From an uncultured Chloroflexia bacterium (lineage in GTDB: Bacteria; Chloroflexota; Limnocylindria; Limnocylindrales; CSP1-4), in assembly GCA_963734535.1 (NCBI GenBank), contig CAVTHS010000012.1:1-29150 (forward strand): a stretch of 29,150 bases of DNA. The letters run 5' to 3'. A model generated the notes under the pieces. That model saw nothing but the letters and a program-made list of their open reading frames with translations, did no database searches and was not told where the DNA came from. Made by a program: the position numbers and the translations under genes. Shown here piece by piece: positions 1,401 to 28,545 of the stretch (its first letter is position 1; every line of letters begins with the position of its first letter).

Positions 1401-1430
1401 TTGCGCGGATCGGCCGGGACAGGGTATGGT
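1401..1430 (+). promoter_or_regulatory. Sigma70-type promoter of the dap operon leader
   Basis: TTGCGC (1401-1406), an 18-nt spacer, then TATGGT (1425-1430). An ATG follows 7 nt later. Confidence 0.6.
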
Positions 1431-1437
1431 CCGCGCC

Positions 1438-1515
1438 ATGCGCTGGCATCTTGTCTCGAACGAGGCGAAGAAGCCCTGGCGGCCCTGCCGGGAGGCACGG
1501 GCCCTGGGGCTCTGA
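1438..1515 (+). CDS. Putative leaderless leader peptide with tandem Lys codons (MRWHLVSNEAKKPWRPCREARALGL)
   Basis: Translated by hand. AAG AAG lies at 1468-1473. The ORF sits between the promoter and a terminator upstream of dapB. Confidence 0.6.
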   Translation: MRWHLVSNEAKKPWRPCREARALGL

Positions 1516-1563
1516 CGGCGCGCGACGACGACCGGGGGTCTCCAGGGAACGGAGGCTCCGAGG

Positions 1564-1595
1564 GCCGCGGACACCGATGGTGACCGCGGCTTTTT
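1564..1595 (+). terminator. Intrinsic terminator/attenuator hairpin upstream of dapB
   Basis: GCCGCGG-ACACC-GAT-GGTGA-CCGCGGC followed by TTTTT. Confidence 0.7.
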
Positions 1596-2510: not shown

Positions 2511-3500
2511 ATGACGCCGATCAGCCGCTCACCGAACCGTCCGCGCCCGGCCCTCCGTGGCGCGTTCACCGCTCTCGTCACGCCGTTCACATCGGACGGC
2601 GCGCTCGACGAGGATGCCTTCCGGCGCCTCGTCAGCTGGCAGCTGCTCTCCGGGATCGACGGCCTCGTCCCGTGCGGGACCACCGGCGAGGCCCCGACCC
2701 TGAGCCAGGCGGAACGCGAGCGGCTGGTCGCGATCACCGTCGAGGTGGCGGCCTCACGCCCGTCGCGCCGCCGCGTGACGATCGTCGCCGGCACCGGAAC
2801 GAACGACACGGACGCGACGATCGGCGCGACCCGGCGGGCAGCCGAGCTCGGCGCTGACGCGGCCCTCGTCGTCGCCCCGTACTACAACCGGCCGGACCAG
2901 CGGATGCTCGAGAGCCATTTCCGGGCCGTCGCCGACGAGAGCGGGCTGCCCGTGGTGGTCTACAACGTCCCGTCGCGGACCGGCACCAACGTGGAGGCCG
3001 ACACGTTCCTCCGGCTCGCTGAGCATCCGCGGATCGTCGCGGTCAAGGAAGCATCCGGGAACCTCGAGCAGATCGCCCGCATCTGCCGCGAGCGGCCGCC
3101 CGATGTCGCCGTGCTGGCCGGCGACGACGCCTGGACCCTGCCGATCCTCGCGCTTGGCGGGAACGGCGTCATCTCCGTCGCCTCGAACGAGATCCCCGGC
3201 GAGATGGTCGCGCTCTGCGCGGCCGCCGGCGCGGGCGACTGGGAGCACGCCCGAAGGATCCACGAGCGATGGCTGCCGCTCATGCTCGCCAACTTCCGGG
3301 GCGCCCCGAACCCGGTCCCGGTCAAGGCCGCGCTGGCCCTCATGGGGCTCGCCACCGACGCGGTGCGCCGGCCGCTCCTTTCGCTCGACGATGACGCGCG
3401 TGAGCGACTGACGCATCTTCTCCGCTCCCTCGGCCTCCTGGAGCTCCCAGGTGGCCGGGCCGTGCCGGAGGCCGTGATGGCGGTCGAGGGGGCGGCGTGA
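2511..3500 (+). CDS. dapA: 4-hydroxy-tetrahydrodipicolinate synthase
   Basis: Motifs ALVTPF, GTTGE, PYYNRP, YNVPSRTG, KEASG (Schiff-base Lys) and PNPVPVK. Confidence 0.95.
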   Translation: MTPISRSPNRPRPALRGAFTALVTPFTSDGALDEDAFRRLVSWQLLSGIDGLVPCGTTGEAPTLSQAERERLVAITVEVAASRPSRRRVTIVAGTGTNDTDATIGATRRAAELGADAALVVAPYYNRPDQRMLESHFRAVADESGLPVVVYNVPSRTGTNVEADTFLRLAEHPRIVAVKEASGNLEQIARICRERPPDVAVLAGDDAWTLPILALGGNGVISVASNEIPGEMVALCAAAGAGDWEHARRIHERWLPLMLANFRGAPNPVPVKAALALMGLATDAVRRPLLSLDDDARERLTHLLRSLGLLELPGGRAVPEAVMAVEGAA

Positions 3501-4363
3501 ACACGGGGAGCCGTGCCGCGGACGCTCCGCCCACGGCGAGCGCGGGGGCAACGGCCGGCATGCTATCGCCGGGGGCGATCCTCGACGCCCTGGAATCGGG
3601 CCGCCTCCGGGCGGCCGCCCCGGATCCCGGGGCGGCGGGCGGCTGGAGGCTCGACCCCGGCGCGCGTGGCGCCATCCTCTCGCTCTTCGCAGACCGCGTC
3701 ACCCGGCCGTGGTCCGCCGACGAGACGTTCGGGTTCGTGGACCGGGTCGGCCTGCCTCCGAAGGACGTCATGGGCTCCGCAGACGCGCGCGCGGCGGCAA
3801 CGGCCGGCCGCCCGTGGAGGATCGTCCCCGGTGGGACGGCGATCCGGGCGGGCGCCCACCTCGAGCCCGGCGTCGTCGTGATGCCGCCGTCGTACGTGAA
3901 CGTCGGCGCCTGGATCGGGACCGACACGATGGTGGACTCGCACGTGCTCGTCGGTTCGTGCGCACAGGTCGGAGCGCGCGTCCATCTCTCGGCGGGGGTC
4001 ATGCTGGGCGGCGTCCTGGAGCCGGCCGGTGCGCGACCCGTGATCATCGAGGACGATGCGTTCGTCGGGGCCGGCTGCCTGCTGCTCGACGGCGTGCTGG
4101 TCGGGCGGGGCGCGGTCCTGGCCGCGGGGGTCACCCTCACGGGGACGTCGCGCCTGTACGACCTCGTCGGTGAACGAGTCCTGGCAGGGACGACCAACGC
4201 GCCGCTCTGCGTGCCGCCGGGAGCGGTGGTCGTGCCGGGGACGCGCTCGCTGCCCGGCGAGTTCGCGACGCAGCACGGGATCGGCGGGCAGGTCGCCCTG
4301 ATCGTGAAGCAGCGTGACGCCCGGACCGACGCGCGGGTCGCCCTCGAGGATGCGCTCCGATGA
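3497..4363 (+). CDS. dapD: Tetrahydrodipicolinate N-succinyltransferase (DapD-type, left-handed beta-helix)
   Basis: Motifs RIVPGG, MPPSYVNVGA, MVDSHVLVGSCAQVG, GGVLEP and a C-terminal LEDALR. GTGA overlap with dapA. Confidence 0.9.
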   Translation: MNTGSRAADAPPTASAGATAGMLSPGAILDALESGRLRAAAPDPGAAGGWRLDPGARGAILSLFADRVTRPWSADETFGFVDRVGLPPKDVMGSADARAAATAGRPWRIVPGGTAIRAGAHLEPGVVVMPPSYVNVGAWIGTDTMVDSHVLVGSCAQVGARVHLSAGVMLGGVLEPAGARPVIIEDDAFVGAGCLLLDGVLVGRGAVLAAGVTLTGTSRLYDLVGERVLAGTTNAPLCVPPGAVVVPGTRSLPGEFATQHGIGGQVALIVKQRDARTDARVALEDALR

Positions 4364-5691
4364 GGATGCCGACACCGGGCCTCGACCCGCCGCGACGCGG
4401 GCGGCCGCCGGCCCGCAACGAGATCCTGCGGGGCGACCGGCTGGGCGGCCTCGACCCCGCAGACCTCGCAGCTCGATACGGCACGCCGTTCCATGTCTAC
4501 GACCTCGACGTCATCGAGCGCCAGGTCGAGACGCTGCGGGCGGCCCTGCCGGCAGTCGTCGAGATCGCGTACGCCGTCAAGGCCAACCCAGCGCTCGCGA
4601 TCGTGGCCCACCTCGGCGCGCTCGGGCTGGGCGCCGATGTCGCATCCGGCGGCGAGCTCGCCACCGCCCGCCGGGCGGGCATCCCCGCGGACCGGATCGT
4701 GGTCACGGGCCCCGGCAAGCGCGACACGGAGCTGCGCGATGCCGTCGAAGCCGGCGTGCGCGCGATCACCGTCGAGTCGCTGGGCGAGCTCGATCGCCTC
4801 GAGGCGATCGCATCCCCCGCGGGCAGGCGCGTGCCCGTCCTCCTGCGGGCGTCCGTCGGGACGGCCGACGGCCTTGAGCGAGTCCGGCTCGTCGGCGACG
4901 ATGGGGCCGGGAAGTTCGGCATGGACGAGCCGGACCTGCGGGCCGCGGCGCGCACGGCCGCCCGATCGGCGCACCTGGAGCTCCTCGGGATCCACCGCTT
5001 CGGAGCGTCGAACGTCCTCGACGCGGGCCGCCTGGCGGCTCACGTCGCGGAGACCGTGGAGCTGGCACGGGCGATCGCCGGGCACGCCGGGGCGGACCTG
5101 CGCGTCGTGGATGCCGGCGGTGGCCTCGGGATCCCGTACGAGCCTCACGAGGAATCGCTCGACGTGGCCGGCTTCGGGAGGCGCTTGGCGTCGCTCGCGG
5201 ACGCCTGGGCGGCCACCCCGGGCCTGCGCGACGTCCGGCTGCTCCTGGAGCCCGGTCGCTGGCTGGTCGGGGCCGCGGGGGCCTACGTCGCGCGGGTCGT
5301 CGACCGCAAGCGTGTCGGCGAGGCCGAGGTCGCCGTCCTCGACGGTGGGGTCCACCACCTCGTCCGGCCGGCCCTCGTCGGGCAGGAGCATCGCGTCCGG
5401 GTCCTCGGCGCCGATCCGCGGACGGCTCGATCGTGGCCGGTCACGATCGCCGGGCCGCTCTGCTCCGGACTGGACGTCTTTGCGGCCAACGCACGGCTGC
5501 CCGCTCCTACGGTGGGCGACCTAATCGCCGTCCTCGACACGGGTGCGTACGGCTTCACCGAGTCGATGCCGCTCTTCCTGAGCCACCCGATCCCGGCCGA
5601 GGTCGCGATCCGCGGCGGACGCTCGGCGCTGATCCGGCCGCGCATGGAGCCGGCGGAGTGGCTGGACCGGCAGCTGCTCCCGGCCTGGTGA
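4360..5691 (+). CDS. lysA: PLP-dependent fold-III (group IV) decarboxylase in the lysA position; BtrK/SbnH-like motifs; probable diaminopimelate decarboxylase
   Basis: Motifs YAVKANP, DVASGGE, GPGK, KFG, GGGLG, EPGR, GPLC and GAYG. Last gene of the dap operon, with ATGA overlap. The gene symbol comes from context, since the substrate-specificity motifs are atypical. Confidence 0.65.
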   Translation: MRMPTPGLDPPRRGRPPARNEILRGDRLGGLDPADLAARYGTPFHVYDLDVIERQVETLRAALPAVVEIAYAVKANPALAIVAHLGALGLGADVASGGELATARRAGIPADRIVVTGPGKRDTELRDAVEAGVRAITVESLGELDRLEAIASPAGRRVPVLLRASVGTADGLERVRLVGDDGAGKFGMDEPDLRAAARTAARSAHLELLGIHRFGASNVLDAGRLAAHVAETVELARAIAGHAGADLRVVDAGGGLGIPYEPHEESLDVAGFGRRLASLADAWAATPGLRDVRLLLEPGRWLVGAAGAYVARVVDRKRVGEAEVAVLDGGVHHLVRPALVGQEHRVRVLGADPRTARSWPVTIAGPLCSGLDVFAANARLPAPTVGDLIAVLDTGAYGFTESMPLFLSHPIPAEVAIRGGRSALIRPRMEPAEWLDRQLLPAW

Positions 5692-17192: not shown

Positions 17193-17306
17193 GGTCGGAG
17201 GATAGCCCGGACGCCGCCCGAACGCCCTCGCGGCGTCCGCGACGGGCTGGGCCGCCCGCCGGCCGCGATCCTGCCATCCCGTATACTGCCGACCGAAACT
17301 GAAGAT

Positions 17307-17397
17307 CGCCTCCGGGGAGCGCACAGCGCTGAGAGTGTGGCACCAGCCACAGACCCGCCGAACCTGATCTGGCTCATACCAGCGAAGGAAGCAGGCC
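17307..17397 (+). ncRNA. TPP riboswitch (THI element)
   Basis: Conserved blocks GGGGAGC...GCTGAGA...ACCC...GAACCTGATCTGGCTCATACCAGCGAAGGAA, lying upstream of the thi genes. TATACT -10 box at 17282. Confidence 0.95.
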
Positions 17398-17465
17398 TCA
17401 CCTGACTCGATGCCCGCCCGTTCCTCCACGGACGGCATCTCGATTGTCAGGAGGCGCAGGATCCC

Positions 17466-18299
17466 GTGGCGGCGACGAATGACGTGATCGGAGCAGCCGG
17501 CCGTCCGCGGCCGCGAGCGCTCACGATCGCCGGGTCCGATTCGGGCGGGGGAGCCGGAATCCAGGCCGACCTCAAGACGTTCGCTGCGCTCGGGGCGTAC
17601 GGCGCCTCGGCGGTCACCGCGATCACCGCCCAGAACACGACAGGCGTTCGGATGATCCACGAGGTCCCGGCGGACGTGGTGGCGGCCCAGGTCGACGCCG
17701 TGCTCTCCGACATCGGCGCCGACGCGGTCAAGACGGGGATGCTCTTCAGCACGGCGATCGTCGAGGCGGTGGCCGGCTGCCTTCGCGCCCACGGCGTCAC
17801 GCGGCTCGTCGTCGACCCCGTGATGGTGGCGAAGGGCGGCGACCGGCTCCTGCGCGAGGATGCGATCGCGGCGCTCCGGGACCTGCTCCTTCCGATCGCC
17901 GCGGTCGTCACGCCAAATGCCCCGGAGGCCTCCGTGCTCGCCGGCCTGGACGTCGTCGACGCGCGGACCGCGCGCGAGGCCGCCCGCCGGATCCATGCGC
18001 TCGGGCCGCGCCTCGTCATCGTCAAGGGCGGCCACCTCGGCGGCGAACGCTCCGAGGACACCGCGTTCGACGGGACGACGTTCGAGGTGCTCTCGGCTCC
18101 GCGGATCGACACGCCCCACACGCACGGGACCGGCTGCACCTTCTCGGCGGCGATCGCAGCCTGCCTCGCAGGCGGAGCGTCGCCGCTCGACGCGGCGCGG
18201 GCGGCGAAGGCCTTCCTGCAGGGCGCGATCGAGCACGCCGAGCCGCTCGGGGCGGGCCGCGGCCCGGTGAATCACCTGTGGAGGTATCGCGATGCGTGA
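17466..18299 (+). CDS. thiD: HMP/HMP-P kinase
   Basis: Motifs [33 protein letters not shown] and HGTGC. Confidence 0.97.
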
Positions 18300-19116
18300 G
18301 CTCGACCTCGGGGCCGTCACGGCCGATGCCCTCGCCGAGATCCGGGACCGTCACCCGCTGATCCACCAGATCACCAACTACGTCGTCATGAACGACACGG
18401 CCAATGTCACCCTCCACATCGGTGCCTCGCCGGTCATGGCCCACGCGATCGGCGAGGTCCGCGAGATGGTCCGCCACGCCGGCGCCCTCGTGCTCAACAT
18501 CGGGACGCTGGACCCGGCCTGGATCGAGGCGATGCTCGCCGCCGGTAGCGAAGCGAATGAGCGCGGCGTGCCGGTGGTGCTGGACCCGGTGGGGGTCGGC
18601 GCGACCACGCTGCGGACCGATGCCGTGGAGGCGATCCTGGCCGCGGTGCGCGTCGACGTTGTCCGCGGCAATGCAGCCGAGCTGTCGGCCATCGCTGGGC
18701 TTGCGGCGGAGATCCGGGGCGTCGACTCCGTCTCGGCGGACGCGCCAGACGCCGCGGCGCGGATCGTCGCCCGGCGGACGGGCGGCGCCGCGGTTGCCAG
18801 CGGCCCGATCGATCATGTCGCCGACGCGACGCGCGCCGCCCGGGTGGAGAACGGCCATCCGCTGATGGGGGCCATCACGGGGTCGGGCTGCATGGCGACC
18901 GCGCTCGTGGGCGCCTTCCGGGCGGTCCAGCCCGACCCGTTCCTGGCTGCCACGGCCGCGATGATCGCGTTCGGGATCGCCGGCGAGATCGCGGCGGAGC
19001 GAAGCGCCGGTCCTGGCACGTTCCGCCAGCACCTCATGGATGCCGTGTACGGGCTTGGCCCCGAGGTGATCCGGGCGAGGGCGCGGGCGACGATTGCACC
19101 GGTGATGCCGGCATGA
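18292..19116 (+). CDS. thiM: Hydroxyethylthiazole kinase
   Basis: Motifs ITNYVVMN, GASPVMAH, NIGTL, DPVGVGA, RGNAAE and TGSGC. Confidence 0.96.
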   Translation: MRELDLGAVTADALAEIRDRHPLIHQITNYVVMNDTANVTLHIGASPVMAHAIGEVREMVRHAGALVLNIGTLDPAWIEAMLAAGSEANERGVPVVLDPVGVGATTLRTDAVEAILAAVRVDVVRGNAAELSAIAGLAAEIRGVDSVSADAPDAAARIVARRTGGAAVASGPIDHVADATRAARVENGHPLMGAITGSGCMATALVGAFRAVQPDPFLAATAAMIAFGIAGEIAAERSAGPGTFRQHLMDAVYGLGPEVIRARARATIAPVMPA

Positions 19117-19811
19117 CCGGGCCCCCTGACGGTCGCCTGCGCCACCGGGAACAGCTCCGGGCCGCCGGCGTCTACCTCGTGACCGAGGAGGCGCTCAGCG
19201 CCGGGCGGACGTCGGTGGAGATCGTGGCGAAGGCGATCGCGGCCGGGATCGGGATCGTCCAGGTCCGCGAGAAGCTGGGGACTGCCCGGCGCGCCCTGGA
19301 GATCGCGGTGGCACTCCGCAGCGCCACCCGCGAGCAGGGAGGGCTCCTCCTCGTCAACGATCGTCTCGACCTTGCCCTGGCGGCACACGCGGATGGGGTC
19401 CACCTCGGCCAGGACGACGTGCCGGTCGCGACCGCCCGCGCGATCCTCGGACCCGACGCCCTGATCGGGCTCTCGATCACCGATCCTGGGCAGCTCGAGC
19501 TGCCCGACGTCCGCGACGCCGACTACCTCGGGGTGGGCGCGGTCTTCCCGACCGACTCGAAGGCGGACGCGCGGTACACGGGGCTCGACTTGCTGGCCGC
19601 GGCCCGTGCGGGGGTTGACCTGCCCATCGTCGCCATCGGCGGGATCACCCCGGAGAACGCGGCCGCGGCCGTCCGGGCCGGCGCGGACGTGGTGGCGGTG
19701 ATCGGCGCGATCGCCGGCGCCGCCGATCCTGCATCCGCGGCGCGGCACCTGCTCGAGGTCGTCGCGGTCACCCGGCGCGCGCGGCCCGACGCAACCGGGG
19801 GGCGGCGGTGA
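19113..19811 (+). CDS. thiE: Thiamine-phosphate synthase
   Basis: Motifs QVREK, VNDR, GVHLGQDD, FPTDSK and AIGGI. Confidence 0.96.
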   Translation: MTGPPDGRLRHREQLRAAGVYLVTEEALSAGRTSVEIVAKAIAAGIGIVQVREKLGTARRALEIAVALRSATREQGGLLLVNDRLDLALAAHADGVHLGQDDVPVATARAILGPDALIGLSITDPGQLELPDVRDADYLGVGAVFPTDSKADARYTGLDLLAAARAGVDLPIVAIGGITPENAAAAVRAGADVVAVIGAIAGAADPASAARHLLEVVAVTRRARPDATGGRR

Positions 19812-20788
19812 CCGAGGGTCCGGGCGAGTTCGCGCTCATCGCCGAGCTCGCGGCGCTGTTCGGGAACCCGCCCGACGGTCTCGGGATCGGCGACGATGCG
19901 GCCACCTGGCCGGCGCCTGCCGGCACCGTCGCCGTGGCCACCACCGACATGCTCGTCGAGGGCATCCACTTCCGGCTGGACTGGACCAGCCCAATGGATC
20001 TCGGCTGGAAGGTCCTTGCGGCCAACCTTTCCGACCTCGCAGCGATGGGCGCCACGCCGGGTCGCGCCCTGTTGTCAATCGCGATTGACCCTGCCCGCCG
20101 CGAGCTGGTCCTCGACGTCGCCCGCGGGCTGCAGTCCCTGGCGGTGCTGACGGGCACCTGGATCGTCGGCGGCGACACGGTCCGCTCCCCTGGTCCGCTC
20201 GTGATCAACGTCGCCCTCGTCGGCCAGGCAGATCCGTCCCGCCTGCTTCGCCGCGACGCGGCACGGGCGGGCGATCTCGTCGGGGTCACCGGCATCCTCG
20301 GCGCATCGGCGGCGGCGCTGACGCTGCTCTCGGAAGGCGCCGGATCGATGGATCCCGCCGCAGCGCCGCTCCTCGCCGCGCACCACCGGCCGCACCCGCG
20401 GCTGGTCGCCGGGCAGGTGCTCGCGTCCCACGGGGTCCGGTGCGCGATCGACATCAGCGACGGCCTCGCCAGCGAGGCGCTGCACGTTGCCCACGCCAGC
20501 GGGGTCGGCATCAAGATCGACGTCGGCCGAGTGCCGGTCGCGCCGGCGGCCGTGGAGCTGCTCGGCGATCGCCGCAGCCGCGAGCTGGCACTGACGGGCG
20601 GGGAGGACTACGAGCTCCTGTTCACCTTCGACCCGCGGCTCCGGGCAGAGCTCGCGGCGGACCTCCAGGTTGACGGGGGCCTGACGGTCCTCGGCGAGGT
20701 GAGCGATCACGTGCCTCCCGGCGACGCCCGGTTCGTGGCGAACGGTCAGCCGATCGAGCCGGCCCAGCGGGGATACGTGGCGTTCTGA
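19808..20788 (+). CDS. thiL: Thiamine-monophosphate kinase
   Basis: Motifs EFALI, GIGDDAA, NLSDLAAMG, GGDT, DISDGL and GGEDYEL. Confidence 0.96.
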   Translation: MTEGPGEFALIAELAALFGNPPDGLGIGDDAATWPAPAGTVAVATTDMLVEGIHFRLDWTSPMDLGWKVLAANLSDLAAMGATPGRALLSIAIDPARRELVLDVARGLQSLAVLTGTWIVGGDTVRSPGPLVINVALVGQADPSRLLRRDAARAGDLVGVTGILGASAAALTLLSEGAGSMDPAAAPLLAAHHRPHPRLVAGQVLASHGVRCAIDISDGLASEALHVAHASGVGIKIDVGRVPVAPAAVELLGDRRSRELALTGGEDYELLFTFDPRLRAELAADLQVDGGLTVLGEVSDHVPPGDARFVANGQPIEPAQRGYVAF

Positions 20789-22116
20789 TGACTGCCCCGG
20801 CCCGGCTGCCCGACGCCCCGCGGGACGACCTGGCCGCCGCCCAGCTCGGGATCGAGCCGGTTCCCCGGCGCCATCGCGTGCTGGGCTTCCTCGACTTCTT
20901 CGTCCTGTGGGCCGACTTCGGCGTCGGGCTCCTGGTGCTGCTGGCGGGGACGCTCCTGGTGCCCGGGCTGGGCTTCTGGCCCGCGATGGCGGCGATCGCT
21001 CTGGGGACACTCGCCGGCGTGCTCCTCCTCGGGCTCGCTGGAGTCGTCGGGTCCGACCTCGCGGTCCCCTCGATGGTCGGCCTCCGCCCAAGCTTCGGGA
21101 TCCGCGGGAGCTACCTGCCCAGCCTCGTCAACGTCATCCAGCTCGTCGGGTTCGGCGCCTTCGAGGTCATCATCATGGCCCAGGCCTCGGCCCGACTCGC
21201 GGCGCCGATCGTCGGCCCGGGTTCCTACCCGGCCTGGGCCGTCGCGTGGAGCGCGGTGGTGATCCTCATGGGCCTGGGCGGCCCCCTGGTCGTCGTTCGC
21301 CAGTGGCTGGAGAAGGCCGGCATCTGGATCGTCCTCGCGACCGCGGCCTGGATGACCGCCTACGTCGTCACCCACTTCGACCTTGGCGCCGCGGTCGCCC
21401 GACCCGGCGACGGGAGCCTGACGTTCGCGCAGGCCATCGACCTCGTGGTGGTCATGCCGATCAGCTGGCTGCCGCTCGTCGCCGACTACAACCGGTTCGC
21501 GCGCGACACGCGTTCCGCGTTCTGGGGCACGGTCGCGGGCTTCGCGGTCGCGAACGTTGGCTTCTACGCGCTCGGCGTGCTGCTCATCCTGGTCCTGCCG
21601 GGCAGCGACCTGGTCGGCTCGATCCTCTCGATCGCGTTCGGGGCGGCCGGCCTCGCGCTCCTCCTCGGCGACGAGGCAGACAACGCGTTCGCGGACATCT
21701 ACTCGGCAGCGATCTCCGTGCGCAACGTTCGACCCGGCTGGTCGACGCGCTGGCTCGTGGTTGGCATCGGGGCGATCGTTCTCGGGATCGCCCTGGCGGT
21801 GGACCTCACCCAGTACCAGAATTTCCTGTTCCTCGTCGGCTCTCTGTTCACGCCGCTGTTCGGGGTCCTGTTCGCCGACTACTTCCTCCTGGGGAGGCGC
21901 GGCTACGCGACGGCGGAGCTCTACCCGACGAGCCGCGGGGCCGAGAGACCGCTGGGGATCAACCCGGTGGCGCTCCTCGCCTGGGCCGCGGGCATCGGGA
22001 GCTACCTGGTGGTCATCAACACCGCCCCTTGGCTCGGGGGCACCCTCCCGTCTCTCGGCGTGAGTCTCGGCGTCTACGTGGCCCTGACGAAGCTGCGGCG
22101 GGCGCTCGCGCGGTGA
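20788..22116 (+). CDS. cytX: NCS1-family permease, putative hydroxymethylpyrimidine transporter
   Basis: About 12 TM helices, with MPISWLPLVADYNRF and FADIYSAA motifs. Part of the thi operon. Confidence 0.85.
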   Translation: MTAPARLPDAPRDDLAAAQLGIEPVPRRHRVLGFLDFFVLWADFGVGLLVLLAGTLLVPGLGFWPAMAAIALGTLAGVLLLGLAGVVGSDLAVPSMVGLRPSFGIRGSYLPSLVNVIQLVGFGAFEVIIMAQASARLAAPIVGPGSYPAWAVAWSAVVILMGLGGPLVVVRQWLEKAGIWIVLATAAWMTAYVVTHFDLGAAVARPGDGSLTFAQAIDLVVVMPISWLPLVADYNRFARDTRSAFWGTVAGFAVANVGFYALGVLLILVLPGSDLVGSILSIAFGAAGLALLLGDEADNAFADIYSAAISVRNVRPGWSTRWLVVGIGAIVLGIALAVDLTQYQNFLFLVGSLFTPLFGVLFADYFLLGRRGYATAELYPTSRGAERPLGINPVALLAWAAGIGSYLVVINTAPWLGGTLPSLGVSLGVYVALTKLRRALAR

Positions 22117-25587: not shown

Positions 25588-28545
25588 ATGACAACGATCA
25601 GGCGCCCCGTGGACACCACGCTCTCGGTCACCAAGGCGGCACGCCTCCTGGGCGTGCACCCGAACACGATCCGGGCGTGGAGCGACCAGGGGCGACTCTC
25701 GTTCCTGCGCATCAACGAGCGCGGCGACCGCCGCTACCGGCTCGCTGACCTCCAGCGCTTCCTCGCGGAGGCGGAGACGAAACGCGAGCCCGTCCGCGGC
25801 CGCCGCGGCTTCGGCCGGAGCTCTGCCGCGCCCGTCGCCCCGTCGATCGGCGCCGACACGGTCGAACAGCGAACGCGGCCTTCGCCGCGCGCATCCGCCG
25901 ACCCGGCGACCGCCGTCCGGATCGCGTCCGCGCACGCCGGCTACCGGACCGCGGCGCGAACCCGCCCCGACGTCGCGATCCTCGCCCGGCTCGCCGACCT
26001 CGTCGTCGCAGACGCGGATGCGGATGTCGCGATGCGGGCCGCGGTGGACGACCTGCACGACCGCGCAGGACACGGGCTGGTCGCGATCCTCGAGCACCGG
26101 GACGGGCGGCTCGTGACGCGGACTGCGCGTGGGGCCGGCGTGGACCGACTCGGGTCGCTCTCGGATGCACACGGCCTGACCGCCCGCGCCCTGCGGGGCG
26201 AGAGCCCCGTCGCCGAGACCGGTAACGCGGGCCCGGACTGGCTCGGAGGATCAGCGAGCCTTCTGCGTTCCCGCGTGGCGGGGCCGATCCGCGATGCGGA
26301 CGACCATACCTGGGGCGTCCTGCTCGTGGCCGACGAAGGCACGGCGGTCCCCCCGGAACGAATTGCGTTCGTGTCCGCGGTTGCCCGCTCGCTCGGCATC
26401 GCGATCCATGCGGAACGGCTGCGCGGCGACGCGGCGCTCCGGCTCCACCGCGTCGAGGCGCTTCGCCGCATCGCGATCGACCTCGGCGGGACGCTCGACA
26501 TCGGCGAGATCCTCGCAGGCGTCGTCGACCACGCCCGCATCCTGTTCGGGGCCGAGCGCGCGGCGGCCTCGCTCCTTGGCGCTGACGGCCGGATGACCGC
26601 CGAGGCAAGCCACGGCTTCTCGGCCGGCTACCTCGCCGCCACGCGCGACCTTCCACTTCCGGCGCTCCCCGCGGAGGTGGTTGCCGAGCAGCGGCCGCTC
26701 TTCTCGGAACGATACCGGGACGACCCGCGGGCGCAGCCGGTCCGGGCAGCGGTGGTCCAGGAGGGATTCGAGACGCTCTGCGCCGCGCCACTCCAGGGCA
26801 CCGGGGGCGCACTGGGACTCGTCACCATCTGCCACGACCGACCGCACCGCTGGGATCCGGAGGAGCTCGAGGCCCTTGCCGGCTTCGCGGCGCACGCAAC
26901 CACCGCGGTGAAGAACGCGCAGCGGTTCGCGCGCATGGCGACGTGGACGGCGCAGCTGCAGTCGATCCAGCAGCTCGGCACGAAGCTCTCGCGCCTGACC
27001 ACGGAGAAGGAGATCGGCGACGCCATCTCGAACGAGCTCGAGGCGCTCATCGCCTTCCACAACGTCCGTGTCTATCGCCTGCGCGAGGATGGCTGGCTCG
27101 CTCCCGTGGCGATGCGCGGTCTCGTCGGCGAGTTCAAGGACGAGACGCCGGACCTGCTCCGCATCCGGATCGGCGAGGGGATCACCGGCTGGGTCGCTCG
27201 CAACAACATGCCGCAGAACCTGGGGGACGCCGCCAACGACGATCGGGCCCAGACGATCGCGGGCACGCAAGACGACCTCGAGGAGTCGATGCTGCTGGCG
27301 CCGATGGTCTACGAGGACGAGGTCCTCGGCGTGATCGTCCTCTCCAAGCTGGGCCTCCACCAGTTCTCCGATGACGACCTGCGCCTCCTCGTCATCTACG
27401 CCAGCCTCGCCGCGCAGGCGATCGCGAACGCCGACACGAGCGAGCACCTGCGGGCGCAGTCGACGCGACTGGAGCGACGGCTGGCCAGCCAGCGAGCGCT
27501 CCTGGCGACCACCGAATCGATCCTCGGAACGCTCGAGACGCGGCAGATCCTCGAGCAGGTCGTCGACCGCCTCAGCGCGGTCGTCCGGCTCGACACGATC
27601 TCGATCGAGCTGCTCGACCCCGGGTCCCGGATCCTGCGGCCCGTCCTGGCGCGGGGCGTGCACGCGGCTGCCTACCTCGAGCCGTGGGAGCCGGGCGAGG
27701 AAGGGCTTGCGACCTGGGTCGTTGCCCACGGCGAGCCCCAGCTCGTCCGCGATGAGCTTCTCGACTCCAGGGTGCGCCAGTTTCCCACGACGGGGCCGCT
27801 CGAGGGCAGCCTCATCTGCGTCCCGCTGCGCGGCCCGGACGGCGCGTTGGGAGTCGTCTCGATGGAGCGACTCGGGTCGGAGGAGCGGTTCGACGAGGAT
27901 GACTTCGAGCTCGTCCAGCTCTTCGCCGGCCAGGTCTCCATCGCCCTCCGCAACGCGGCTGCCTTCCGCGTCAAGGAGATCGAAGCCCAGACCGACCAGG
28001 TGACCGGGCTTCTCAACGCCGGCACGTTCCGGACCTGGCTCCAGGAGCCGGCGATGCCGGACGAGCGATTCGGGCTCCTCATGCTCGACCTGGACCACTT
28101 CAAGGAGATCAACGAGACGATGGGCCACGAGGCCGGCACCGAGCTCCTGCGGCAGATCGCCCGGGCGATCTCGGATGCCGGCCGCGACTCGGACCGCGTC
28201 TTCCGGTATGGCGGTGACGAGTTCGCCGTGATCGTGGCGGCCCCCGAGCCGACGGCCGCAATGGCCGTCGCGCGCCGGATCCGCCAGGTGCTCCGGGAGC
28301 TTCCCCACCGGCTTGCGGGGCTCGATTGCGGCCCCGTGGTGAGCGCCTCGATCGGCGTCGCGACCTATCCGTCCGACGGGACGACGCATGCCGAGATCCT
28401 GCTGGCGGCCGACCGGGCGTGCTTCGTGGCTAAGCGACGTGGGCGCGACCTGATCGCCACGGCCGCAGAGGGCCTGGCGCTGGCGGCGGACTTCACGTTG
28501 TCGGAGCCGACGCCGATGGATCCGGTGACACCGGGCCCGGGCTGA
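25588..28545 (+). CDS. BldC/excisionase-like (MerR-type) HTH + ~4 GAF domains + GGDEF dinucleotide cyclase
   Basis: HTH LSVTKAARLLGVHPNTIRAWSDQGRL...GDRRY; GAF motifs GEGITGW, APM, VPL and FSDDD; GGDEF domain DLDHFKEINETMGH, RDSD I-site, RYGGDEF, SIGVA and ADRA. The start could also be GTG 25609. Confidence 0.9.
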   Translation: MTTIRRPVDTTLSVTKAARLLGVHPNTIRAWSDQGRLSFLRINERGDRRYRLADLQRFLAEAETKREPVRGRRGFGRSSAAPVAPSIGADTVEQRTRPSPRASADPATAVRIASAHAGYRTAARTRPDVAILARLADLVVADADADVAMRAAVDDLHDRAGHGLVAILEHRDGRLVTRTARGAGVDRLGSLSDAHGLTARALRGESPVAETGNAGPDWLGGSASLLRSRVAGPIRDADDHTWGVLLVADEGTAVPPERIAFVSAVARSLGIAIHAERLRGDAALRLHRVEALRRIAIDLGGTLDIGEILAGVVDHARILFGAERAAASLLGADGRMTAEASHGFSAGYLAATRDLPLPALPAEVVAEQRPLFSERYRDDPRAQPVRAAVVQEGFETLCAAPLQGTGGALGLVTICHDRPHRWDPEELEALAGFAAHATTAVKNAQRFARMATWTAQLQSIQQLGTKLSRLTTEKEIGDAISNELEALIAFHNVRVYRLREDGWLAPVAMRGLVGEFKDETPDLLRIRIGEGITGWVARNNMPQNLGDAANDDRAQTIAGTQDDLEESMLLAPMVYEDEVLGVIVLSKLGLHQFSDDDLRLLVIYASLAAQAIANADTSEHLRAQSTRLERRLASQRALLATTESILGTLETRQILEQVVDRLSAVVRLDTISIELLDPGSRILRPVLARGVHAAAYLEPWEPGEEGLATWVVAHGEPQLVRDELLDSRVRQFPTTGPLEGSLICVPLRGPDGALGVVSMERLGSEERFDEDDFELVQLFAGQVSIALRNAAAFRVKEIEAQTDQVTGLLNAGTFRTWLQEPAMPDERFGLLMLDLDHFKEINETMGHEAGTELLRQIARAISDAGRDSDRVFRYGGDEFAVIVAAPEPTAAMAVARRIRQVLRELPHRLAGLDCGPVVSASIGVATYPSDGTTHAEILLAADRACFVAKRRGRDLIATAAEGLALAADFTLSEPTPMDPVTPGPG

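Follow-up and report, generated by a model that had tools for sequence, protein, structure and literature searches.

In the 29,150-nucleotide (nt) stretch of Chloroflexota DNA analysed here (contig CAVTHS010000012.1, positions 1 to 29,150; hereafter the window), the lysine operon dapB-dapA-dapD-lysA is preceded by a short open reading frame (ORF) with two adjacent lysine (Lys) codons, followed by a series of hairpins that ends in an intrinsic terminator. Judging from the sequence and its conservation, this element is, with a probability that we put at about 0.75, a transcription attenuator of the leader-peptide (ribosome-mediated) type, which acts as a sensor of charged tRNA-Lys and governs dapB-dapA-dapD-lysA. 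A first-pass annotation of the window had inferred such a Lys-codon attenuator with the ribosome as the sensor, and this inference gained support from related genomes, since the start codon (ATG), the reading frame, the Lys codons, the hairpins and the terminator were found in 79 of 80 loci.

In the mechanism that we propose, transcription would start at, or a few bases from, the ATG at 1438, so that the mRNA is leaderless and 70S ribosomes load on it directly. When lysine is plentiful, or when the ORF is not translated, the local hairpins A and C and the terminator would form, and the polymerase would stop at 1591-1595. When Lys-tRNA is scarce, a ribosome would wait on the AAG codons at 1468-1473, and its leading edge would keep the outer helix of hairpin A open. 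The freed strand 1502-1513 could then pair with the 5' strand of hairpin C, whose 3' strand could pair with the loop region of A, and GCGGCCCU (1479-1486, starting 5 nt past the last Lys codon) could pair with AGGGCCGC (1561-1568). This last helix, AT2, would take up the 5' arm of the terminator before the 3' arm has been made, and the polymerase would read on into dapB.

The leader reading frame and its promoter

Relatives were collected by scanning representative genomes with an alignment of the window DapB and 20 homologues. This gave 227 candidate stretches, 179 of which encode a DapB relative, and the best 80 of these 179 are the loci L001-L080 used below, all of them from metagenome-assembled genomes (MAGs) of Chloroflexota, with DapB identities of 50-92%. 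The leader was recognisable 5' of dapB in 79 of the 80 loci; the exception, L056, has only 48 nt of upstream sequence and cannot be judged, and L017 ends within the leader. An alignment of the regions upstream of dapB showed conservation of the start, of the Lys codons, of both hairpins (A and C) and of the terminator. The core pattern AAG-N5-GCGGYCC-NNSC was present in exactly one copy, always at the leader position, in 75 of the 80 loci, and the five loci without the exact pattern are L056 and four with a one-base variant. Scanning with this pattern revealed no further copies of the element elsewhere within the 80 loci and no second element in the window, where an exact match at 26336 lies inside a long ORF and one-mismatch matches numbered 7 against 2.4 expected.

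The leader ORF (1438-1515, + strand) consists of 25 codons and a TGA stop codon and encodes MRWHLVSNEAKKPWRPCREARALGL; its two Lys codons, AAG AAG at 1468-1473 (+), are the proposed sensing site. The ORF and both codons had been described in the first-pass annotation and are present as given there. For the relatives, the analysis of the reading frame covered the 78 loci with enough upstream sequence. The start codon in the frame of the Lys codons is ATG in 75 of them and GTG in the other three (L004, L029 and L046), and the region 15-45 nt before the last Lys codon contains 90 ATG triplets in this frame, versus 1 and 3 in the other two frames. The leaders are 18-26 codons long and contain two or three Lys codons in all 78 loci, arranged as KK in 6 (including the window), KKK in 33, KxK in 19 and KxKxK in 20, and the x codons between the lysines vary at all three positions (S, A, R, E, H, Q, P, T). 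In twelve genes of the window, Lys accounts for 1.42% of the codons (70 of 4936). The 62 distinct deduced peptides have freely variable N-terminal halves, and the last AAG always stands 5 nt ahead of an invariant GCGG. Taken together, the start codons, the frame and the Lys codons point to translation of the leader ORF.

Behind the Lys codons, the peptide stretch (L/R)WRPCREARA is nearly invariant in most loci, and this could mean that the nascent peptide itself is the sensor or a small protein, for instance a K-x-K / WRP arrest peptide, or that the terminated leader acts as a small RNA. The K-x-K arrangement also resembles the +X+ arrest motif of macrolide-dependent stalling reported in PMC12583479. 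However, this conserved half of the peptide is encoded by both strands of hairpin A, and in two loci, L020 and L024, the hairpin is kept by means of paired substitutions (e.g., C-G to U-A) while the peptide differs (..KEKPGRSWLEAWTPGR / PGRSWLEAWTPGR). Moreover, the stop codon lies +33, +42 or +54 nt from the last Lys codon, depending on the subgroup. Because L020 and L024 preserve the hairpin and not the peptide, and because the position of the stop codon shifts, the constraint is on the structure of the RNA. Since the element, in addition, always precedes lysine-synthesis genes, we consider a role of the peptide or of the terminated RNA as such very improbable.

The promoter proposed in the first-pass annotation is present on the + strand and consists of a -35-like hexamer TTGCGC (1401-1406, matching 3 of 6 consensus positions), an 18-nt spacer and a -10-like hexamer TATGGT (1425-1430) that ends 7 nt before the ATG; the hexamers recur in the relatives. 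An automated rule, by which a hexamer having both key -10 bases (NANNNT) must end 5-10 nt 5' of the in-frame start, was satisfied in 74 of the 78 loci, with a background rate of 12.7% of positions. The remaining four loci, among them the window, are artefacts of the rule, in which the chosen ATG lies inside the -10 hexamer itself, and they have TATGGT, TAGGAT or TACCAT 7 nt before the next in-frame ATG. TTG was found within the -35 window in 72 of the 74 loci having a rule-placed -10 hexamer. A Shine-Dalgarno (SD)-like motif within 15 nt 5' of the leader start was found in none of the 78 loci. The fixed distance between the -10 hexamer and the ATG, which is 6-10 nt in the family, the absent SD motif and the TTG at -35 are consistent with a leaderless start, and the transcript probably begins at the start codon of the leader or up to about 3 nt before it.

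Two kinds of motif were seen close to the promoter. In the KK/KKK subgroup, a conserved AAATGGTTGC (or AAATGTTTGC) motif, located at 1391-1406 in the window, spans and precedes the -35 hexamer. It occurs in L001-L012, L019, L025, L027-L029, L033, L036, L042, L067, L070, L075 and L078, is kept even at a DapB identity of only ~55%, and may represent either a longer promoter element or a site for a regulator. In the KxKxK subgroup, three to four TGCATA / TATGCA-like boxes were found by eye ~20-120 nt 5' of the leader ATG, one of which overlaps the -10 hexamer (GTGCATAAT). These boxes, present in L021, L026, L030, L032, L035, L037, L041, L052, L059, L066, L068, L076, L077 and L079, may form an array of transcription-factor sites that adds a second layer of control.

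Two predicted folds of the leader RNA

The predicted folding energy of the RNA spanning 1438-1600 is -90.7 kcal/mol, compared to -72.5 ± 4.2 kcal/mol for 200 dinucleotide shuffles (z -4.36), none of which folded as well. Hairpin A (1472-1511, +), the 5' strand of which starts within the last Lys codon, is composed of an outer helix (1472-1479/1504-1511), an inner helix (1481-1489/1494-1503) and a GGGA loop (1490-1493). A small linker hairpin follows at 1516-1534 (+); it folds, and its sequence and length vary among the relatives, giving gaps in the alignment. Hairpin C (1535-1543/1551-1559, +) is formed in this terminating fold as well, and both its strands are re-used in the alternative fold described below. 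The intrinsic terminator (1564-1595, +) has a stem of 1564-1570/1584-1590 and 1572-1575/1579-1582, followed by TTTTT at 1591-1595. The first-pass annotation had drawn both of these hairpins, and the U-tailed terminator, in the same way.

Pairs were counted on a MAFFT alignment of 79 sequences (alignment A2). The inner helix of hairpin A was paired in 95.1% of the cells, with double-sided changes in 4 of 9 pairs, and the outer helix in 86.9%, with such changes in 2 of 8 pairs. For the terminator these values were 85.2% and 5 of 11 pairs, and for hairpin C, where one subgroup is poorly aligned, 78.8% and 1 of 9 pairs. The terminating fold as a whole was paired in 77.8% of the cells, versus 35-50% when the partners were slid, and its covariation score was 0.116, versus 0.092 for shuffles, with none of 500 shuffles reaching it. 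Double changes occur in 19 pairs, a number that 110 of 500 shuffles reach and that is thus unremarkable. For the terminator hairpin, the median energy is -19.8 kcal/mol, and in 77 of 79 loci the 9 nt behind it include at least 4 T; the exceptions are L062, with a poor tail, and L032, without the 3' arm of the terminator. L032 (2880-2970) retains the ORF, both hairpins (A and C) and the terminator 5' arm, and has other sequence in place of the 3' arm and the U tract; possible causes are rearrangement or decay of the attenuator and a faulty assembly. A further hairpin, formed by the Lys codons and an upstream CUU (1449-1471), was discarded as a feature of the family, because only 34-50% of its cells are paired.

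The alternative fold is likewise compatible with the sequences of the family. Its proposed basal helix is AT2. The 5' strand of AT2 (GCGGCCCU, 1479-1486, +) shares bases with the 5' strand of hairpin A, and five of the seven bottom pairs of the terminator 5' arm are covered by its 3' strand (AGGGCCGC, 1561-1568, +). AT2 was paired in 98.1% of the cells, versus 38-53% with a slid partner. Four of its eight pairs are invariant and thus uninformative either way, since they never vary. One pair has undergone two independent compensatory changes, from C-G to A-U in L038 and from C-G to U-A in L079. Strand 1502-1513 (+), which forms the 3' outer strand of hairpin A in the terminating fold, can pair in constrained folds with 1535-1547 to form helix B. 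Helix B is predicted whenever the 5' strand of hairpin A is masked, and was paired in 79.7% of the cells; double-sided changes affect one of its 11 pairs. With the Lys codons masked, three helices stack to give a single long hairpin, namely AT2, helix B and a short helix formed by the A loop with the 3' strand of C. The whole alternative fold was paired in 87.1% of the cells, versus 39-55% when slid.

The mutually exclusive helices proposed earlier for the antiterminating state were B and D. Helix B stood up as a part of the alternative fold. Helix D (1554-1558/1562-1566), put forward as the helix that invades the terminator, did not: it is paired in 91.1% of the cells and shows no double-sided changes, and it is broken by the substitutions in L038 and L079, which also weaken hairpin A to A/G or U/G. 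AT2 is therefore preferred in its place. A plain 2:3 pairing (1504-1512/1562-1570) was kept only as a fallback. It is paired in 92.0% of the cells and has one column pair with CG in 43, UA in 19 and UG in 11 sequences, in which the U is part of the TAG stop codon in two subgroups and the A is part of the internal loop of their terminator.

A structured and conserved leader could also be a metabolite- or protein-binding RNA switch, such as a new lysine or diaminopimelate (DAP) riboswitch or the target of a regulator, that acts on the same terminator, with the ORF being incidental. Nucleotide conservation from the Lys codons to the terminator is indeed very high, even at a DapB identity of 50-59%, the z-score given above attests to a strongly structured RNA, AAG repeats could in principle be protein-binding triplets, and a riboswitch is used elsewhere in this organism. 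The conserved bases, however, lie almost all in strands common to two alternative helices, and this sharing would suffice to account for the degree of conservation. The AAG triplets, moreover, vary in their spacing, being adjacent in KK and 3 nt apart in KxK. A binding switch also leaves unexplained why the start codon is in frame in every locus (ATG 75, GTG 3, against 1 and 3 loci in the other frames), why the -10/ATG spacing is fixed, and why there are four Lys arrangements with variable codons.

Nor does any Rfam family match the leader. At gathering score, the window contains a tRNA and a thiamine pyrophosphate (TPP) riboswitch only, both elsewhere, and no lysine riboswitch or T-box. With the threshold relaxed to E<=10, the region 1300-1720 gave three matches at chance level, again neither a lysine riboswitch nor a T-box, the best being sX11, with 16.8 bits against a gathering score of 70 and covering the terminator hairpin only. 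In 20 related loci, Rfam reported no family other than tRNA. Considering these points, we regard a binding switch as unlikely.

A T-box-like element that senses uncharged tRNA-Lys, with AAG as the specifier codon, would account for the conservation of AAG, and the UGG that comes after it (CUCUGGCGG) could be likened to an acceptor-end binding site; a tRNA-Lys gene, moreover, neighbours the leader in the window. The T-box match is nevertheless absent in the window even at E<=10, and absent in the 20 relatives, the UGG is replaced by UUG, GGG, CGG or GUG in several loci, and the neighbouring tRNA-Lys gene is found in only 10 of 60 scanned loci, all of them closest relatives. A specifier model, furthermore, needs no start codon, no reading frame and no multiple Lys codons. 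We give this explanation next to no weight.

The TPP riboswitch of the window, at 17303-17408 (+), scores 67.3 bits against a gathering score of 54.3 and shows that the organism also uses riboswitches. It is followed at 17466-22116 by thiD, thiM, thiE, a thiL-like gene and a permease gene of the cytosine/purine/thiamine family, which is an ordinary arrangement.

Predicted effect of a ribosome on the choice of fold

The balance between the two folds was calculated with a ribosome mask from P-12 to P+10, using transcripts that end at the terminator stem. The 3' limit of the mask comes from the position of the ribosomal helicase, as Takyar and colleagues reportedly described it in 2005. The measure was the gap between the energy of the best fold with the AT2 helix and that of the best fold with the terminator. 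In the free RNA, the median gap was +6.0 kcal/mol and the antiterminator was equal or better in 5 of the 78 loci. With the last Lys codon in the ribosomal A site, the median fell to -0.3 kcal/mol and the antiterminator was equal or better in 46 of 78, and with the stop codon in the A site, the median was +3.6 kcal/mol and the number 16 of 78. The stall at Lys shrank the gap in 74 of 78 loci; the terminator is thus predicted to lose ground when a ribosome occupies the Lys codons. When the A-site codon was moved along the leader, the median gap, +7.3 kcal/mol with the A site six codons ahead of the last Lys codon, decreased steadily and was smallest when this last codon was reached. One codon further, the mask covers the 5' strand of AT2, and it continues to do so for about nine codons. 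The minimum at the last Lys codon agrees with the invariant 5-nt spacing between AAG and GCGG. In transcripts cut before the 3' arm of the terminator, AT2 was part of the minimum-energy fold in 65 of 78 loci with the Lys stall, in 26 without a ribosome and in 60 with the ribosome at the stop codon.

The effect persisted when the mask was made longer. With a mask to P+13, the median gap was +1.2 kcal/mol with the first and +1.6 kcal/mol with the last Lys codon in the A site. A mask to P+15 gave a median of +0.3 kcal/mol when the first Lys codon occupied the A site. In the window, the partner predicted under a mask to P+15 is the plain 2:3 pairing.

Several results weigh against attenuation by a stalled ribosome, or limit what can be built on the counts. 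Firstly, the effect of the mask depends on the assumed footprint: when the mask reaches P+15 and the A site is occupied by the last Lys codon, all 78 loci have fewer than 4 AT2 pairs outside the mask. Equilibrium folding with a mask to P+15 also leaves the window with its terminator. Secondly, even with a mask on the Lys codons, the terminator remains the best fold of the full-length window RNA, with -71.8 versus -67.0 kcal/mol for the antiterminator; for the free full-length RNA these energies are -90.7 and -80.0 kcal/mol. In the family, the predicted probability of the terminator fell below 0.5 in only 15 of 78 loci on the stall, compared to 2 in the free RNA and 4 at the stop codon. Since the terminator stays favoured at equilibrium under the Lys-codon mask, the switch would have to be kinetic, as in classical attenuators, because the antiterminator strands precede the 3' arm of the terminator in synthesis. 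Thirdly, a ribosome at the stop codon also narrows the gap, in one subgroup as strongly as the Lys stall does, and the model therefore needs a fast release of the ribosome at the stop codon. Fourthly, the covariation of the whole alternative fold is no better than that of column shuffles (0.096 versus 0.097, with 289 of 500 shuffles reaching it), so that the support for this fold consists of its conservation and of the two compensatory cells at one AT2 pair. The sensing codons are also few, as the classic his or leu leaders have more than two or three. Furthermore, a simple consensus scanner called no promoters and no terminators over 1200-1800; the -35 hexamer has only half of the consensus positions and the terminator stem contains an internal A/A mismatch, and because the scanner called neither feature, both calls rest on folding and conservation. 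Finally, all relatives are MAGs of one class, and the locus counts are thus not independent events.

The persistence of the terminator, which in the window is predicted to form at equilibrium in nearly all conditions, would also fit a constitutive terminator or a transcript-stabilising structure without any switch, preceded by an ORF that arose by chance in GC-rich DNA. But a terminator that always acts, placed between the operon and its conserved promoter, would switch off lysine genes that are essential, and no other promoter was seen at 1596-1673, where no dedicated look was made. The ORF and Lys-codon statistics are, moreover, far from what chance would give. This explanation therefore receives hardly any credence from us, and a translated leader whose Lys codons set the fate of the terminator remains the reading that we favour.

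Known systems and the surrounding genes

To our knowledge, the only Lys-codon attenuator described is that of Thermus thermophilus, where Tsubouchi and colleagues reportedly described a leader-peptide attenuator of the lysine (alpha-aminoadipate) cluster in J Biol Chem in 2005. That leader is reported to combine likewise a short Lys-codon ORF, alternative hairpins and a terminator before lysine genes. It differs in that it serves the aminoadipate pathway in a member of the Deinococcota, whereas the element found here precedes genes of the diaminopimelate pathway in the Chloroflexota, and the two are likely to be of independent origin. With the trp, his, leu, thr, ilv and pheA attenuators, the element would share the common logic of cognate codons, a stalled ribosome that picks the fold, and an intrinsic terminator. 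The his leader alternates between a three-hairpin (A:B, C:D, E:F) and a two-hairpin (B:C, D:E) relay, and the three-hairpin off state proposed here comes closest to his. Enterobacterial leaders are led by an SD sequence, whereas the present leader appears to be leaderless and has two or three sensing codons only. The proposed antiterminator would differ too, being a long nested hairpin with a basal helix from distal region 1, immediately ahead of the stalled ribosome, instead of the plain 2:3 pairing.

Lysine and diaminopimelate genes are textbook riboswitch targets, and in many bacteria the lysine riboswitch (L-box, Rfam RF00168) controls DAP-pathway and lysine genes via a terminator. Here, a translated ORF would stand in place of the ligand-binding aptamer, in line with the lack of an Rfam match. 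The element would be a case of ribosome-sensing, non-riboswitch control of a DAP lysine operon in a phylum without a known case, and would introduce no new principle. It might in addition be the founding case of a Lys leader that, throughout the class Limnocylindria, senses lysine for the DAP pathway where other bacteria have the lysine riboswitch, and it might have an unusual nested-hairpin wedge geometry, although we rate this wider reading as less likely than not. In such a geometry, a single nested antiterminator hairpin of ~90 nt would have its basal 5' strand exactly 5 nt after the last Lys codon, and the ribosome would act as a wedge, precise to one codon, by which the three terminating hairpins give way to one antiterminating fold. 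A literature search on Lys or dapB leader peptides, attenuation in Chloroflexi and riboswitches in Limnocylindria found no such element, and as most subscription journals lie outside its coverage, the negative result speaks only weakly for an unpublished element.

For Deinococcus deserti, a list of 14 predicted leader peptides on leaderless transcripts has been published (PMC4007540). They precede ligase genes for Tyr, Thr, Trp, Met, Asp, Leu, Cys and Phe, and furthermore trpEGD, leuC, leuA, ilvBH, asd and a DAHP synthase gene (PMC4007540). The likeness lies in transcripts that start at the A of the ATG and in ORFs rich in the cognate residue before biosynthesis and tRNA-synthetase genes; the difference is that none of the 14 is listed for dapB or lysine-specific genes, and that the phylum is another one (PMC4007540). 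A preprint describes leaderless polycysteine short ORFs in mycobacteria, on which a stalled ribosome remodels the downstream RNA upon changes in amino-acid supply (10.1101/834739). According to its abstract, these ORFs sense Cys and act on translation by unmasking a ribosome-binding site, and not through an intrinsic terminator (10.1101/834739).

If our reading is correct, an abundant and uncultured class of Chloroflexota has solved the control of lysine synthesis with the ribosome as the sensor, and leaderless sensory ORFs would reach a third phylum beyond the Deinococcota and Actinomycetota. The family of 79 sequences is compact, and the geometry of stalled ribosome and antiterminator could then be read from it. 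The comparison also flags a small, apparently translated ORF that gene callers miss.

The element sits in a 360-nt intergenic region between a tRNA-Lys(UUU) gene (1237-1311, - strand) and dapB, in a window with a G+C content of 72.8%. On the + strand, Pfam matches identified an alpha/beta hydrolase gene and a DinB-family gene ahead of tRNA-Lys, and the operon genes dapB (1674-2435), dapA (2511-3500), dapD of the succinyltransferase type (3497-4363) and lysA (4360-5691), after which a DUF2203 gene follows. The NCBIfam scores are above cut-off for dapA and dapD, just under it for lysA (292.6 versus 297.9), and below it for dapB (88.7 versus 122). Genes downstream of dapB on the same strand encode DapA in 79, DapD in 73 and LysA in 68 of the 80 loci, many of which end before lysA. 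The window DapB lacks, besides an NCBIfam score above cut-off, a Pfam match to the N-terminal DapB domain. Its homologues carry the name 4-hydroxy-tetrahydrodipicolinate reductase in their sources, by which they are assigned to Candidatus Limnocylindrales/Limnocylindria, a class of Chloroflexota, and the divergent DapB is the first gene of the operon in all relatives. The window DapB is a member of a divergent reductase subfamily typical of the class Limnocylindria.

The tRNA-Lys(UUU) gene is divergent from the leader and lies ~125 nt from the leader ATG in the window. The ten loci that have it (L001-L003, L005-L010 and L012) are all among the 12 closest relatives, and in L007 the distance is ~1.7 kb. 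A Lys-tRNA gene beside a Lys-codon sensor may be a coincidence or a clade-specific synteny, and the gene was rejected as a part of the device on account of its restriction to these close relatives.

Within 1620-1665, the window contains a CCUCCUCCUCC run ~35 nt before the dapB SD sequence GGAGGA (1660-1665, +; the dapB ATG is at 1674), which it could mask, and CCUCC...GGAGG pairs are likewise visible in many relatives. The fold of 1596-1690, which bears on this masking of the SD by CCUCC, was no better than shuffles (z +0.47). In two loci, L038 (~750-940) and L065 (~1830-1945), a short tandem-like repeat insertion with GGCCACTCGGCCC-type units lies between the terminator and dapB.

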